From the NCBI GenBank assembly GCA_965220745.1, contig CBDCQT010000013.1:384001-448000 (forward strand): a stretch of 64,000 nucleotides of DNA. The letters are read 5' to 3'. The DNA comes from Alphaproteobacteria bacterium. Its GTDB lineage: Bacteria; Pseudomonadota; Alphaproteobacteria; UBA828. Positions 59,099 through 63,179 of the stretch are shown here, piece after piece (the first letter of the stretch is position 1; every line of letters begins with the position of its first letter). A model generated the notes under the pieces. The model saw nothing but the letters and a program-made list of their open reading frames with translations. It ran no database searches and was not told where the DNA came from. A program made the translations under genes and the position numbers.

Positions 59099-59610
59099 AT
59101 GGGCGGATATCTGATCACCGGCGGCCGGCTGCTCGACGCCACCGGCGCGTCACCGCAGGACAGTGTTTCGGTGCTGGTGGAGGGCAACCGCATCCGCAAG
59201 ATCGGCCCGGACCGGGAGGTCGCGGCCGCAGCCGAAACCCTGGGCGGTTACCGGACCATCGATGCCGCCGGCCACACCGTCATGCCGGGCATGATCGACG
59301 CCCACTGCCATATCTCCTACGGCGACATCCTCTCGTTCGAGGAGCTCGACCTCTACGCGGGCGTGGAGTACCGCACGCTGCGCGCCGCCAACAACGCGCG
59401 CAAGGTGCTGCGCGCGGGCGTTACCGCGTTCTCCGATCCTGGCTCCACATGGAACATCTCGGTGGCGGTCCGCGACGCCATCAACGCCGGCCTGATCGAG
59501 GGGCCGCGCATGGCCTCGGCCGGGCGCTACATCACCACCTTCAACGCCATCGGCTCGCCCTGGCCGTCGTGGATGGAGCACCCCAAGTCGTCGTTCGCCG
59601 TGCTCTGCAA
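59099..59610 (+). pseudogene. Amidohydrolase (prolidase-like metal-dependent hydrolase), 5' part, interrupted by the IS
   Basis: VMPGMIDAHCH, LRAGVT, GPRM. The frame runs into the IS at ...SSFAVLC. Confidence 0.9.
59603..59610 (+). repeat. 8-bp target site duplication, left copy (CTCTGCAA)
   Basis: Identical to 62283-62290 and abuts the left IR. Confidence 0.95.
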
Positions 59611-59634
59611 GGGGATTACAAAGGCTGGTTGACA
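59611..59634 (+). repeat. Left terminal inverted repeat
   Basis: GGGGATTACAAAGGCTGGTTGACA. Confidence 0.95.
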
Positions 59635-59657
59635 TTCCGGCCCGGACTCGCTAAGTT
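59629..59657 (+). promoter_or_regulatory. Candidate transposase promoter with its -35 inside IRL
   Basis: TTGACA (59629-59634)-N17-TAAGTT (59652-59657). Confidence 0.65.
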
Positions 59658-59693
59658 CTATCAACCTATCCGTATCGGAAATGGAGACAGGAC

Positions 59694-60680
59694 ATGGCCC
59701 GCAAGGCGCCCGGCAAATCTCACCGCGAGGGACTGACCATCGTCGAGTTAGTGGACATGTTCCCGACCGAAGAGGCCGCCACGACATGGTTTGAGGATAC
59801 GATCTGGCCCGACGGCCGGCATTGCCCCAAGTGTGGCTCCGAGCGCACAGGCAAGGCGAGCCATGCCAGGATGCCCTATTGGTGCACGGACTGCCGGAGC
59901 TACTTCAGCGTCCGTACGAACACCCCCATGGCCCGGTCGAACGTGCCCCTGCGCAAGTGGGCCATTGCGATTTACCTGTGCCTGACGAGCCTCAAGAGCG
60001 TCTCCAGCATGAAGCTCAAGCGTGACATCGGAGTGTCGCAGCCCACCGCGTGGTTCATGCTCCAGCGTATCCGGGAGGCTTGGGCGGAAGACGACGATGA
60101 CGAGCTCGATGGCCCGGTAGAGGTCGATGAGACCTACATGGGAGGCGAGCGCAAGAACATGTCGATCGCCCGGCGCAAGGCACTCCGCGAGGCGAACACG
60201 GGGCGTGGTTCTGTCGGCAAGACGGCCGTTGTGGGCATCAAGGACCGCGAGAGCGGGGAAGTCCGTGTCGAGGTCGTATCGAGTGTCGACGGCAAGACCT
60301 TGCAGGGTTTCGTCCGCGAGAACACAGAGGCCGGCGCCAAGGTCTATACGGACGAAGCATCGGCTTACAAGGGACTGGCGCGGGACTTTGACCATGAGGG
60401 CGTGCGCCACAGCGTCAGTCAGTACGTCCGGGGGCAAGCCCACATCAACGGCATGGAATCGTTCTGGTCAATGCTCAAGAGGGCGCATGACGGCACGTTT
60501 CACAAGATCAGTCCCAAGCACCTGCAACGCTACGTTTCGGAGTTTGCAGGCAAGCACAATATCCGGGACTCAGGAACGCTTGCGCAGATGCGGGACACTG
60601 TCGCCCGTATGGTTGGCAGGAACCTTTTCTACCGGGACTTGACCGCCGACAACGGACTGTCGAACGCGGGCCGGTCGTAA
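59694..60680 (+). CDS. IS1595-family transposase
   Basis: Zn ribbon CPKC...CTDC, HTH (SSMKLKRDIGVSQPTAW), VEVDETY, YTDE..AY, HINGMESFW, KHLQRYVSEF; GGAG RBS. Confidence 0.96.
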   Translation: MARKAPGKSHREGLTIVELVDMFPTEEAATTWFEDTIWPDGRHCPKCGSERTGKASHARMPYWCTDCRSYFSVRTNTPMARSNVPLRKWAIAIYLCLTSLKSVSSMKLKRDIGVSQPTAWFMLQRIREAWAEDDDDELDGPVEVDETYMGGERKNMSIARRKALREANTGRGSVGKTAVVGIKDRESGEVRVEVVSSVDGKTLQGFVRENTEAGAKVYTDEASAYKGLARDFDHEGVRHSVSQYVRGQAHINGMESFWSMLKRAHDGTFHKISPKHLQRYVSEFAGKHNIRDSGTLAQMRDTVARMVGRNLFYRDLTADNGLSNAGRS

Positions 60681-60776
60681 AGGTTCAACCCGGCGAAAAA
60701 GGGCTTTGGCCAGCTTTTCCGGGGTTGCTCCGACAAGGTGAACTTTCGGGTCTAGCATCGGAACGCCACGGGTCAT
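60570..60776 (-). CDS. Small hypothetical protein (68 aa) overlapping the transposase 3' end in antisense
   Basis: AAGGAG RBS 8 nt before ATG 60776; MTRGVPMLDPKVHLVGATPEKLAKALFRR... Confidence 0.55.
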   Translation of the reverse strand: MTRGVPMLDPKVHLVGATPEKLAKALFRRVEPLRPARVRQSVVGGQVPVEKVPANHTGDSVPHLRKRS

Positions 60777-60792
60777 CGATTCGACTCCTTGC

Positions 60793-60820
60793 TTGACGAA
60801 AGGAAGGAACACGGTAATTT
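60793..60820 (+). promoter_or_regulatory. Candidate promoter for the leader plus micropeptide transcript
   Basis: TTGACG-N16-TAATTT. Confidence 0.45.
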
Positions 60821-60854
60821 CGCCCAAGTGGCCGCGACGAATCGCGGTGACCCG

Positions 60855-60888
60855 AACGAAAGAGCCCCCCGCTGGAGGCGGGAGGCTC
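60855..60888 (-). terminator. Rho-independent terminator
   Basis: 11-bp stem (60862-60872 / 60878-60888), 5-nt loop, U-rich tail on the minus strand. Confidence 0.7.
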
Positions 60889-60942
60889 GATCAAAAGGGT
60901 CTGGTGTTGACCTGGAGAGGCGCACCAAACGGGCGTCAGAAC
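60855..60942 (-). ncRNA. Candidate antisense small RNA of about 85-90 nt
   Basis: Promoter TTGACA (60976-60971)-N16-TAGGAT (60954-60949); hairpin UUUGGUG/CACCAGA with a CUCC loop; terminator GAGCCUCCCGC-CUCCA-GCGGGGGGCUC-UUUCGUU. The stem irregularities are G-U wobbles only on the minus strand. Confidence 0.6.
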
Positions 60943-61006
60943 GCGGGTATCCTACCGACTCCCGCGAGCCTGTCAAGTGCGCTCTCCGAACGAAAGGAGA
61001 GCCAAC

Positions 61007-61081
61007 ATGGCTATCCCCTATCCTGTTCCAAAACAACCGAAACCTCCACATGTCCCGTGGCCGCCAGAGCCATGGTGTTAG
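61007..61081 (+). CDS. Candidate 24-aa proline-rich micropeptide MAIPYPVPKQPKPPHVPWPPEPWC
   Basis: AAAGGAGAG RBS shortly before ATG 61007, sequestered in a GCTCTCC/GGAGAGC hairpin; followed by a strong hairpin at 61091-61121. Too short for the ORF track. Confidence 0.55.
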   Translation: MAIPYPVPKQPKPPHVPWPPEPWC

Positions 61082-61089
61082 TCGATCTT

Positions 61090-61130
61090 GCCCCCGGTGG
61101 GTCTGCATGACTCGCCGGGGGGGGGGGGGC
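61090..61130. terminator. GC-rich hairpin with a G13 run between convergent cargo ORFs
   Basis: CCCCCGGTGGGTC-TGCAT-GACTCGCCGGGGG; G run at 61117-61129. Confidence 0.55.
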
Positions 61131-61360
61131 TACCAAGCTTTGGTGCTTATGGTGGGAGACGTAGAGCGCTCTTCAGGCCAAGAGGCGGTCACAGTCTCTT
61201 GGTCTGTATCCACGTTCTCACGGACGAGCTCGCTTCCGTCCGGGAAACGATACGTAAGGGTCTTTGTGACATACTCTGCCTTGCGGGCAACGCCAAGCCA
61301 GAACAGCACGCCGCGCGCGCCGTTCGCGACCCTCAGTTGCAATCGCTCGGCAATGCTCAC
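61130..61360 (-). CDS. Hypothetical cargo protein (76 aa)
   Basis: GTG start; TLTYRFPDGSELV resembles TTTYREQPDGSRIV in the 61898-62230 ORF. Confidence 0.5.
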   Translation of the reverse strand: MSIAERLQLRVANGARGVLFWLGVARKAEYVTKTLTYRFPDGSELVRENVDTDQETVTASWPEERSTSPTISTKAW

Positions 61361-61361
61361 G

Positions 61362-61443
61362 ATCCATCAACCTATCCGTATCGAATCCATCAACCTATCC
61401 GTATCGAAAAAGCTATCCGTATCGAAAAAGCTATCCGTATCGA
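61362..61443 (+). repeat. Four-copy tandem array with core CTATCCGTATCGA (2 x 23 bp plus 2 x 18 bp)
   Basis: ATCCATCAACCTATCCGTATCGA at 61362-61384 and 61385-61407; AAAAGCTATCCGTATCGA at 61408-61425 and 61426-61443. ATCAACCTATCCGTATCG also occurs at 59660-59677. Confidence 0.95.
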
Positions 61444-61579
61444 ATTGTTGCACAGATACTCCGACAAGGCTACCCTCCTTCCCTGCGTGCGGTTCGGCGA
61501 GGGCGGGCAGGAGCGCCCCACGCCTTGATTACCGGGCGCTCCAGGCGGGGTGCTGTCCCTGTACACGGCACCCCGCCGT

Positions 61580-61879
61580 TCATTCCTTGTCGGTGCCTGT
61601 TCCGGCCGCGTGCATTCTGCCGGCAATGCGGACCGGCGTGGGAGAGACGACCTCCGCCCCGCCGTCTATGTGGATGTGGAACACTCCGCCTGGGGCGCGA
61701 AAGTCCTGATAGGTTGCGCCAGGCGCCAAGTTGATTTGTACCTGCGGCGGCGACTCTCGTTGCTCCCGCAGCTCGGCAAGCTCTTTCTCCAATTGGGCAA
61801 TTCGCTTGGGCGCGGTAAGCATAGCGCTCACCCTTCCCCACCCAACGCGGAGCAACTCGACAGAAAACCACGATTCCAT
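61580..61879 (-). CDS. Hypothetical cargo protein (99 aa) with a short coiled coil and conserved C-terminal motif
   Basis: RIAQLEKELAELREQ; ends PVRIAGRMHAAGTGTDKE. Followed by hairpin GGCGGGGTGCTGT/ACGGCACCCCGCC at about 61544-61577. Confidence 0.65.
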   Translation of the reverse strand: MESWFSVELLRVGWGRVSAMLTAPKRIAQLEKELAELREQRESPPQVQINLAPGATYQDFRAPGGVFHIHIDGGAEVVSPTPVRIAGRMHAAGTGTDKE

Positions 61880-61897
61880 CCACGCATCATACTCTTC

Positions 61898-62230
61898 CTA
61901 CTCCTTGTCAGAAACCTTGTCAGTACCCGTGCCGGTCACATGCATTCTGCCGGCAAGACGCATAGGCTTGGCGAGCGTGGTCTGAGTGACGATCCGCGAG
62001 CCGTCCGGTTGCTCCCGGTAGGTGGTCGTGTCGTTCAAGCGGACCTCGGGGCCGAGGACCGACTTGGGTTTTCTCTTGCGGTCTATCCAGACACATACGC
62101 CCATGCCCACAAGGGCCAAGACGATGACGGCTATCCATATCCCTACGGACCAATGGGCCGTGAAGATATCCATCATTGCGCCGGCCCCCAGATCGAGGGC
62201 GAAAAAGCAGACTGCGAAATACCTAGCCAT
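61898..62230 (-). CDS. Hypothetical membrane cargo protein (110 aa), probably leaderless, with conserved C-terminal motif
   Basis: Hydrophobic N-terminal half then RKRKPK; ends PMRLAGRMHVTGTGTDKVSDKE. ATG lies 6 nt after the predicted -10 box. Confidence 0.65.
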   Translation of the reverse strand: MARYFAVCFFALDLGAGAMMDIFTAHWSVGIWIAVIVLALVGMGVCVWIDRKRKPKSVLGPEVRLNDTTTYREQPDGSRIVTQTTLAKPMRLAGRMHVTGTGTDKVSDKE

Positions 62231-62236
62231 TCTGCG

Positions 62237-62264
62237 ATCATATCGATTCCCCCGGTCGTGTCAA
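62237..62264 (-). promoter_or_regulatory. Candidate inward-facing promoter with its -35 inside IRR
   Basis: TTGACA (62264-62259)-N16-TATGAT (62242-62237). Confidence 0.65.
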
Positions 62265-62282
62265 CTACTCTTTGTAATCCCC
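62259..62282 (-). repeat. Right terminal inverted repeat
   Basis: TGTCAACTACTCTTTGTAATCCCC. Confidence 0.95.
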
Positions 62283-63179
62283 CTCTGCAACACGCGCGAG
62301 GAGATGGTCACGGAGGCGCGCCGCGAGATCAAGGACGGCGTCGACATCGTGAAGGTGGCCGGCGACGGCGACGTGCTCACCGGCGAGGCGGAGCTTGCCG
62401 GCAGCATCGGGCTCGACGACCTGCGCGCCATCGCCGAAGTCACCCACCGTCTCGGTAAGGTCTGCACCATCCACGCGCGCTCGGGCCGCGCGGCGGCCGA
62501 TGCCATCCGCGCCGGCTTCGACTGGATCATCCACGGCTCCTACATGTCCGACAACGATCTTGACGTGCTCTTCCGCAACCCGACGCCGCTGATCCCGACC
62601 TTCTCGCTGCTGGCGAACACCCTCGAATGGGGCCCGGACCTCGGCTGCTCGGGCTTCATCCTCGACGCCTACAAGGATGAGGTCGAGCGCCTTGCCAGCG
62701 TCGTCTCGCGAGCCCATGCCGAGGGAATCACTATCATCGCCGGCACCGACAGCGGCCAGGGCTCGGTGCCCTACGGCGAATGGCACGCGCGCGAGATGGA
62801 GCACCTGATGACCTATGGCGGCCTGAGCGCGGTGGAGGCGATCCGCGCGGGTACCGCTAACGCGGCGCTGACGCTCGGCATGGAGGACGAGATCGGTACC
62901 TTGGAGGAAGGCAAGCTCGCCGACATTCTGGTGGTGGATGGCGACCCGCTCGCCGATATCGCCGTGCTGCAGGACCGGGAGCGCCTCGCGGTCGTGATGA
63001 AGGACGGCGCAGTGGTCGACACAGAGGCGCCGATCCCCGAGCCCGCGCGCTACAACTGGGAAAAGCCCATGCTCTACTGGGAGGATCCGCGGATGCCGAC
63101 CCAGAGCTTCGTGCGCGAGCACGCGACCAGCAAGCCGCGCTGGATGCAGCAGGAACGCCGTCTCGACGCAGCGGAGTAG
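62283..63179 (+). pseudogene. Amidohydrolase, 3' part (begins with the right TSD copy)
   Basis: LCNTREEMV...VDIVKV, TIHA, WIIHGS, AGTDSG, GKLADILVVDGDPL. Removing the IS plus one TSD restores one 1401-nt frame (466 aa). Confidence 0.9.

Follow-up and report, generated by a model that had tools for sequence, protein, structure and literature searches.

A rare RNA block within an IS1595-family transporter insertion sequence: a putative minus-strand structured RNA sharing its DNA with a plus-strand cargo slot

The 64,000-nucleotide (nt) stretch of DNA analysed here (hereafter the window) covers positions 384,001–448,000 of contig CBDCQT010000013.1 from an alphaproteobacterium of the lineage UBA828 (assembly GCA_965220745.1). 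At 59611–62282 it carries a 2,672-bp transporter insertion sequence (tIS) of the IS1595 family, and the subject of this report, a compact control region around 60793–61130, is situated inside this element. The tIS are elements similar to insertion sequences (IS) that carry passenger genes, and they have been reported from the IS1595 and IS66 families only (bioRxiv 10.1101/2021.05.26.445724). The first-pass annotation of the region had proposed an antisense-controlled, proline-rich micropeptide with a design like that of type I toxin–antitoxin systems. It overlooked two points that alter the reading, namely the location within an IS1595-family tIS and the running of the minus-strand RNA into a conserved small gene, orfS.

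The element was assigned to the IS1595-family tIS by three properties, all of which were found: a transposase with a zinc ribbon, terminal inverted repeats with an 8-bp target duplication, and passenger genes. The transposase matches PF12762 (E 2.4e-42), PF12760 (E 3.5e-8) and NF033547 (197 bits vs a cut-off of 75). The terminal inverted repeats, at 59611–59634 and 62259–62282, are 24 nt long and 88% complementary, and 8 bp is the usual length of the target duplication in the IS1595 family. The element is single-copy in its own genome, and its G+C content is 0.600 vs 0.675 for the rest of the window. It shares with the tIS described in bioRxiv 10.1101/2021.05.26.445724 the single IS1595-type transposase, the terminal inverted repeats, the 8-bp duplication and the location of passengers inside the repeats; it differs in that the passengers here are small open reading frames (ORFs) of unassigned function together with an RNA block. 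The transposase gene, orfS and the control region comprise the following features.

59694..60680, plus strand: IS1595-family transposase of 328 amino acids (aa), identified by PF12762, PF12760 and NF033547
60570..60776, minus strand: orfS, 68 aa (MTRGVPMLDPKVHLVGATPEKLAKALFRR...), identified by homologues and a codon comparison
60793..60820, plus strand: promoter-like site TTGACG-16-TAATTT (-35 at 60793–60798, -10 at 60815–60820), 8/12 against the consensus, below the scan threshold
60832..60847, minus strand: hairpin SL3, CCGCGA-UUCG-UCGCGG
60862..60888, minus strand: SL2, a G+C-rich terminator-like hairpin of 11 pairs (9 of them G-C) with the tail UCUUUCGUU, from the consensus scan
60899..60930, minus strand: SL1, stem GUUUGGUG/CACCAGAC with a C/U-rich loop, from an alignment of six sequences
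60914..60925, no strand: arm C, plus-strand GGAGAGGCGCAC, on the minus strand the 5' half of the SL1 loop, from sequence and alignment
60949..60976, minus strand: promoter-like site TTGACA-16-TAGGAT, 10/12, from the consensus scan
60977..60987, no strand: arm B, plus-strand GTGCGCTCTCC, on the minus strand GGAGAGCGCAC, abutting the -35; kept in 6/6 loci
60981..61002, no strand: hairpin of GCTCTCC (60981–60987), loop GAACGAAA and GGAGAGC (60996–61002), from the sequence; its plus-strand 3' arm is similar to a Shine-Dalgarno (SD) sequence
61007..61081, plus strand: proline-rich ORF MAIPYPVPKQPKPPHVPWPPEPWC of 24 codons, within a GTG ORF at 60977..61081, from the ORF list
61090..61129, no strand: closing hairpin CCCCCGG..CCGGGGG and a 13-G run (61117–61129), from sequence and fold

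Direct reading of the sequence found every listed feature of the first-pass annotation in its place. The minus-strand promoter-like site and the terminator-like hairpin were also listed independently by the consensus scan (10/12; hairpin at 60888–60862, with the tail given as TTTCGTTCGG), which over 3 kb returned two promoter-like sites vs 0.6 expected from shuffled sequences. Arm C, formerly called the anti-anti-SD, is complementary to arm B, formerly the anti-SD, with one bulged G. The putative minus-strand RNA (60943–60822) has a predicted folding energy of -61.1 kcal/mol (z = -4.57; 0/200 dinucleotide shuffles as good), and the plus-strand leader (60827–61135) one of -152.1 kcal/mol (z = -5.11; 0/100). 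In the fold of the minus RNA the SL1 loop is CGCCUCUCCAGGUCAA, containing CCUCUCC, and the SL2 loop is CUCCA.

The orfS gene converges on the transposase gene and overlaps its last ~110 nt, so that an orfS mRNA would be antisense to the transposase message. Its ribosome-binding site (RBS), AAGGAG, is located at 60790–60785, 8 nt upstream of the start; the -35 bases of the plus-strand promoter-like site adjoin or overlap this RBS on its upstream side and on the opposite strand. In the protein database orfS has 78 homologous proteins at E <= 0.01 (45–98 aa, 56–86% identity), and its N-terminal 35 residues are highly conserved in the 21 of 78 homologues that were aligned. Comparison with locus L003 over the 22 codons outside the transposase overlap gave 13 synonymous and 0 non-synonymous differences. 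Judged by its codons, orfS is a real gene under purifying selection. It matches no Pfam or NCBIfam family, and hence no DNA-binding family, and no usable match was obtained in the ESM Atlas; the AlphaFold model is predicted to be mostly disordered (mean confidence score, pLDDT, 59.5), with one or two short helices. Related IS copies that lack the RNA block still have orfS beside the transposase gene, convergent and overlapping.

Relatives were sought in 49 genomes of the order with positions 60681–61360 as the query. The block itself (60828–60987) was matched in G040 (two copies) and G004 (three places), that is, in 2 of the 48 other genomes, and some part of the 680-nt query was matched in 6 of the 49, the genome of the window (G000) included. 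Positions 60690–60798 were matched in G030, G040 and G045, beside related transposases, and the proline-rich micro-ORF was matched nowhere in the 49 genomes. A 43-nt match to 61309–61351 was seen in G047 (E 7e-4). A sample of 401 genomes of the class contained one convincing match, in G202, which has a second copy 79% identical over 319 nt; the matches in six other genomes of this sample (20–42 nt, E 1e-4 to 1e-2) were judged by their length to be chance. Exact-pattern scans of the whole collection returned three stretches in genome_contigs, which are the G040 and G004 loci, and one stretch in the metagenomes. A looser pattern gave 11 stretches in viral contigs, about the chance number by our estimate, none with GGAGAG upstream or ACACC downstream, and these were rejected. 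The block family is rare and consists of six distinct loci, namely the window, G040, G004, two copies in G202 (G202a and G202b) and one metagenome contig, which form two related groups. The conserved core in the five further loci corresponds to window positions 60827–61002.

In G004 the block sits in a repeated unit of ~462 bp with the ends GGGAATTACCCTATTACGTTGAC and GGGGATTACCACATTACGTTGAC, which are of the same type as the inverted repeats of the window. The unit is flanked by T-rich repeats and contains the inverted repeats, the block, a 54-aa ORF and nothing else; by this composition it is a miniature inverted-repeat transposable element (MITE). The MITE-like element was seen at L004 1337–1813 (G004), at L008 and partly at L011, and in one case it interrupts an IS3-family element between orfA and orfB. 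The neighbourhoods of the related loci are crowded with mobile DNA, and group II intron domains were observed near them at L004 2807–2909 (RF01999, 96 bits) and L009 2750–2825 (RF00029, 37.5 bits, just below the threshold).

Read on the minus strand, the order of the block is arm B (GGAGAGCGCAC), a site of the form TTGAC-16/17-TAGGAT/TAAGAT/TAGTTT, a hairpin (H) that surrounds the -10 hexamer of this promoter-like site, and then SL1, SL2 and SL3. The 11-nt inverted repeat made of arms B and C is kept in all six loci; arm B is changed at one base each in G040 (A to G in GGAGAG) and G202b (A to G in GCGCAC). SL1 has the consensus GUUYGGUG...CACCRGAC, and its loop, which is C/U-rich in five of the six loci, starts with GUGCGCYCUCC, i.e. 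with arm C, the complement of B. The SL2 position holds a hairpin in 5/5 loci, each time of unrelated sequence and in four of them more stable on the minus strand; it is flagged as terminator-like in the window and G004, and not in G040, G202a and the metagenome locus. The earlier observation of CUCC in both loops is correct for the window (CCUCUCC in SL1, CUCCA in SL2) but does not extend to the homologues, whose SL2 loops are without CUCC. The minus-strand promoter-like site passes the consensus scan, which covered five loci and left out L038, in the window, G004 and G040 and fails in G202a and the metagenome locus. SL3 (CCGCGAUUCGUCGCGG) occurs in the window, G040 and G004 only. Within the subgroup of the window the promoter spacer is unusually conserved, and the palindrome across the -10 shifts in sequence and register among the loci and remains a hairpin.

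Small ORFs that carry GATP..(L/V)A.A(L/I), or a motif close to it, follow the block on the minus strand in four of the six loci (the window, G202a, G202b and the metagenome contig). The core motifs in the orfS-type ORFs of the metagenome locus and both G202 copies are ...DATPEEVARAIL..., ...GATPGMVATALMRP... and ...VRPEDLVRALV..., and at these loci a further conserved segment lies between the block and the orfS-type ORF. A segment CCCGCCUAUUCGCC...GGCUGUUCUAUUCRGCGGG separates orfS-type ORFs from the block (or from the IS end) at L014 1655–1790, L038, L025, L009 and L010; it gave no Rfam match at E <= 1 at L009 and L010, and may be a separate leader element.

The alignment of six sequences was used to compare the two strands as RNA. 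In SL1 97.9% of the cells are paired; at pair 66-92 four sequences have C-G and two have U-A, and the U.G at 65-93 is invariant. Helix B:C is paired in 95.8% of the cells and is mostly invariant. Overall, the observed paired-cell share was reached by 2 of 500 shuffles and the covariation score by 3. RNAalifold predicts -22.16 kcal/mol with 24 pairs for the minus strand and -16.32 kcal/mol with 20 pairs for the plus strand, and the minimum free energy of a 210-nt segment is lower on the minus strand in 5/5 loci. Among the single hairpins, the minus strand gives the greater stability to SL1, to the SL2 region and to H in four of five loci each, and the plus strand to the SD hairpin (A:B) in three of five. 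Cells of SL1 can pair in 47/48 cases on the minus strand and 40/48 on the plus strand, those of the inner B:C helix in 59/60 and 46/60, respectively, and both substitutions that G202b has in B:C are compatible with G.U pairing on the minus strand only. From these alignments and predicted energies we conclude that SL1 and SL2 are most readily read as minus-strand RNA structures.

In 5/5 loci examined the SD-like arm of the plus strand pairs in a hairpin with the CUCC end of the arm-B repeat, and the sequences differ. The sequence TTGACG and a -10-like hexamer are equidistant from SL3 in the window, G004 (TTGACG-18-TAGATT, flagged by the scan) and G040 (TTGACG-17-TATCCG). The plus promoter proposed earlier is thus present and has counterparts in G004 and G040, but in the window it reaches only 8/12 and falls below the scan threshold. 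Use of the block on the plus strand is plausible, and the architecture noticed at first pass exceeds chance. The ORFs that follow the hairpin, in what could be called a cargo slot, are mutually unrelated; the window has one of 24 aa, G040 one of 74 aa, G004 one of 54 aa and G202 one of 219 aa. The last of these has three database homologues of 205–219 aa (two of them held by NCBI), of which the 219-aa ones fit a start at the ATG after the SD-like arm. The cargo ORFs of the relatives match no Pfam family at E < 0.05, and for the 74-aa ORF the Atlas gave DUF3104 and DUF2158 with scores below 0.9, which are leads only. A GTG within the anti-SD arm was considered as a conserved start and rejected, as it has no SD of its own and is GCG in G202b. 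This GTG (60977) and its counterparts at L002, L004 and L014 are in frame with the downstream ATG ORF in 4/4 cases, at distances of 30, 24, 45 and 33 nt.

The proline-rich micropeptide itself was not borne out as the output of the system. No homologue retains the ORF, the slot ORFs are unrelated, and the G+C content at third codon positions (GC3) is 0.42 vs 0.71–0.90 for the transposase, the two passenger ORFs and three host genes; orfS (0.56) and an unsupported 76-aa ORF (0.67) also lie outside this range. Ten of its 24 residues are proline (6/10 codons CCA or CCT), and it has no hydrophobic stretch. The architecture likened to type I toxin–antitoxin systems does recur in other loci, but the conserved hydrophobic toxin of such systems does not. 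The homologues keep the pairings, with thin covariation, and do not keep the ORF. The ORF listing contains no signal peptide or processing context for the micro-ORF; its five residues KPPHV resemble the PRPPH core of apidaecin, and this is the only likeness. A 24-codon ORF alone is at chance level for such DNA, and given the conserved SD, a start within 4–9 nt followed by 24 sense codons is unremarkable by our estimate. The micro-ORF is most likely a by-product of the cargo slot and not a selected peptide.

The alternative fold in which pairing of arms B and C frees the RBS was considered in the same loci. The repeat that would allow it is kept in 6/6 loci, but the release of the RBS was not reproduced by folding in silico: in partition-function folds made with and without blocking of the antisense-covered part, the SD is paired in both states in all six loci. 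The probabilities of an unpaired SD (unblocked/blocked) are 0.25/0.25, 0.00/0.00, 0.15/0.01, 0.00/0.01, 0.00/0.02 and 0.01/0.01 in a thermodynamic model that ignores kinetics, and only G004 shifts as the switch predicts, from 0.15 to 0.01. The suggested pairing of the CUCCA loops with the transposase RBS is at chance level, as 37.5% of 3,000 random 51-mers pair at least as well.

We favour, with about an even chance of being right, a minus-strand structured RNA, either a small RNA (sRNA) or an attenuating leader of orfS, which in this IS1595-family tIS would be encoded by the same DNA as a plus-strand slot whose SD is occluded and whose cargo varies. The core, 60827–61002, would be an internal control region of the tIS that is read mainly on the minus strand. 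The sigma-70-like promoter at 60976–60949 would start a structured RNA that forms SL1, then SL2 and then SL3; a stop at SL2 would yield an RNA of ~90 nt, and read-through would give the leader of orfS (60776–60570). It is presupposed here that the minus promoter fires and that SL2 attenuates transcription. We speculate that orfS or its mRNA could damp the transposase. On the plus strand the SD-occluding hairpin of the same block would precede the cargo slot, with a different ORF in each relative, and plus and minus transcription could interfere mutually.

Several observations weigh against this minus-strand RNA. In G040 and G004 the block is present without a downstream orfS, so that there it is not an orfS leader. 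Both the minus promoter-like site (3/5 loci) and the U-tail of SL2 (terminator flag in 2/5) are confined to the subgroup of the window. The covariation is thin: 6/18 pairs are changed on both sides, a number reached by 63/500 shuffles, and 12/13 of the G.U cells in B:C come from two invariant columns and are uninformative. The long B:C helix in a minus RNA requires a start upstream of the promoter-like site, which conflicts with the proposed start. On the plus strand, an ATG stands 4–7 nt past the SD-like arm in 4/5 loci, the metagenome locus having no canonical start, and TTGACG occupies the same position relative to the first hairpin in the window, G004 and G040.

These plus-strand features would fit the first-pass model in its general form, in which a ~90-nt cis-antisense RNA pairs with the leader of a plus mRNA starting from 60793–60820, shifts the SD pairings and controls the slot ORF, here the proline-rich peptide, in a manner like that of hok/sok or IS10. 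We hold this to be possible but doubtful. In its favour, G004 and G040 share with the window the two promoter-like sites, the three complementary segments and the SD hairpin; in the G004 MITE no orfS follows the minus RNA, which would end at a flagged terminator; and the spacing of the ATG in four of five loci and the homologues of the G202 ORF, whose 219-aa members match the ATG start after the arm, point in the same direction. Against it stand the SD predicted to be paired in both states in 6/6 loci, with only G004 changing as predicted, and the wobble pairs and energies, which favour the minus strand for SL1, SL2 and H; moreover, the peptide is neither conserved nor hydrophobic (GC3 0.42), and the plus promoter is weak in the window (8/12, unlisted by the scan). 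A broader and, in our view, unlikely reading makes the block a portable convergent-promoter RNA switch of one IS1595-type tIS/MITE subgroup. Cargo expression and transposition control would then be mutually exclusive outputs of one ~170-nt element: plus transcription would feed captured ORFs, minus transcription would stop at SL2 or continue into orfS and transposase antisense, and the proline-rich ORF would be a short leader or ribosome-pausing ORF, not a toxin.

The block could also act as DNA. The inverted repeat GGAGAGCGCAC...GTGCGCTCTCC, its third partial copy and the palindrome of the -10 might bind a regulator, possibly orfS, so that the orfS promoter would be autoregulated without RNA helices. 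In all six loci the promoter-like site has a repeat arm on either side, at about -46 and about +20 to +30, the promoter spacer is unusually conserved in the subgroup of the window, and orfS-type genes lie downstream in 4/6 loci; but orfS is predicted to be mostly disordered (mean pLDDT 59.5) without a match to a DNA-binding family, G040 and G004 retain the repeats in the absence of orfS, and the -10 palindrome changes its sequence and register yet stays a hairpin, which fits RNA better. We regard such an operator as quite improbable. A trans-acting anti-SD sRNA of the alphaproteobacterial ar14/cuckoo type, whose C/U-rich loops would block the RBS of the transposase or of host mRNAs, appears very improbable. 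It is suggested by a weak Rfam match to ar14 (minus strand 60857–60969, 22.6 bits, E 0.36), by CCUCUCC in the SL1 loop and CUCCA in the SL2 loop, and by the C/U-rich SL1 loop in 5/6 loci. However, the score falls far short of the gathering score (58.8), the loops lack the defining motif CCUCCUCCC, CUCC does not occur in the SL2 loops of the homologues, the duplex energy with the start region of the transposase gene is ordinary, and the Rfam match takes the promoter region as its first hairpin. Least probable of all is a decaying remnant of an older element, now functionless and carried along by the tIS and the MITE. The rarity of the family (the whole-collection scans gave 3 stretches in genomes and 1 in metagenomes) and contexts rich in other IS elements would agree with decay, but identity between the G202 copies is ~93% within the block by our count vs 79% over the 319 nt just downstream, and hairpins are retained while their sequences change.

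Parts of this design have counterparts in known systems. Type I toxin–antitoxin systems of the hok/sok type likewise have a long folded leader, alternative SD pairings and, within the leader, a cis-antisense RNA driven by a promoter of its own; they differ in that the ORF here is not conserved and not hydrophobic, and the ORFs of the relatives are mutually unrelated. Antisense control within an insertion sequence is known from the RNA-IN/RNA-OUT pair of IS10. IS10 and IS200 resemble the block in their face-to-face promoters, a short structured RNA opposite a 5' leader, and an RBS-hiding hairpin in a mobile element. In both the controlled gene is the transposase, whereas the block is downstream of the transposase gene and faces the variable slot or orfS. 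For IS200, the likeness concerns the art200 antisense RNA and the SD-sequestering stem described in PMC4513863. The ar14/cuckoo RNAs, defined by two to four adjacent hairpins with CCUCCUCCC in every loop (RF02344; PMC4615179), are also alphaproteobacterial RNAs with adjacent hairpins, C/U-rich anti-SD-like loops and a terminal hairpin as described in PMC4615179; the block differs from them in its score (22.6 bits vs the gathering score of 58.8), in the absence of CCUCCUCCC and in the loss of the loop motif in the SL2 of the homologues. Nine related loci gave no Rfam match at E <= 1, and no such block was found described in a literature search on IS1595 together with antisense or small RNAs.

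In our judgement the block is a genuine RNA module carried by a mobile element, rare and so far undescribed, and the micropeptide reading is unsupported. This holds also for what made the first proposal remarkable, a new proline-rich peptide that would act on ribosomes. Should the block function in the manner proposed, it would represent an undescribed RNA family without an Rfam match that travels alone in a MITE of ~460 bp. Passenger expression and a conserved antisense small gene would be tied to the control of an IS1595-type transposon, RNA-based control would be added to an IS family for which the literature search found no such case, and a compact natural cassette would be available for studies of convergent-promoter regulation. 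The wider importance is modest, since the family is rare and the reading is drawn from sequence comparisons.

The remaining features of the element are its ends, two inward promoter-like sites, a set of repeats and two passenger ORFs.

59603..59610, no strand: left copy of the 8-bp target-site duplication, CTCTGCAA, from the sequence and from contigs of runs X1 and X4 that join 59602 to 62283
59611..59634, plus strand: left inverted repeat, GGGGATTACAAAGGCTGGTTGACA, from an inverted-repeat search
59629..59657, plus strand: inward promoter-like site TTGACA-17-TAAGTT for the transposase (-35 at 59629–59634, -10 at 59652–59657), 8/12, read by eye, below the consensus-scan listing
61362..61444, no strand: tandem repeats with the core CTATCCGTATCG, a 23-nt unit x2 and then an 18-nt unit x2.8, from a repeat search
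61580–61879, minus strand: passenger ORF, 99 aa, from the ORF list
61898–62230, minus strand: passenger ORF, 110 aa, with a hydrophobic N-terminal segment, from the ORF list
62237..62264, minus strand: inward promoter-like site TTGACA-16-TATGAT, the -35 being part of the right inverted repeat, 11/12, from the consensus scan
62259..62282, minus strand: right inverted repeat, from the inverted-repeat search and empty-site contigs
62283–62290: right copy of the target duplication, CTCTGCAA, from the sequence

The -35 of the transposase promoter-like site is part of the left inverted repeat. An extra copy of the CTATCCGTATCG core is located at 59657–59681, between this site and the start codon of the transposase gene, and the CTATCCGTATCG-core repeats have the appearance of sites at which a single DNA-binding factor of the tIS could bind. 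The two passenger ORFs are paralogous, and both end with R(I/L)AGRMH..GTGTDK. The 110-aa ORF has 13 representative clusters at E <= 0.001 in a library of 1.84 billion proteins and is assigned to no known family. A further candidate, the 76-aa ORF at 61130–61360 on the minus strand, was set aside as unsupported, no homologue having words in common with it. A blastn search (distant mode) of the plasmid collection with the whole element returned no match. The genome of the window has four more IS1595-type transposase genes, 53–59% identical, on contigs C12, C10, C5 and C3 (L040–L043), and a motif search beside these four genes found no orfS-type ORF.

The insertion splits an amidohydrolase gene, whose two ORF parts cover positions 1–104 and 94–345 of the Pfam profile. 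The empty site is present in contigs of X1 and X4, two DNA sequencing runs, which join 59602 to 62283 and skip 2680 nt (2672 + 8); all four DNA runs with the stretch come from one sample of one study. A co-occurring variant without the insertion is present in the sample. The empty-site contigs differ from the window at several bases nearby. The 13-G run, which lies between the micro-ORF and the end of the 76-aa minus ORF, has 12 G in the X4 contig, and this difference in length could be due to slippage, assembly error or phase variation.

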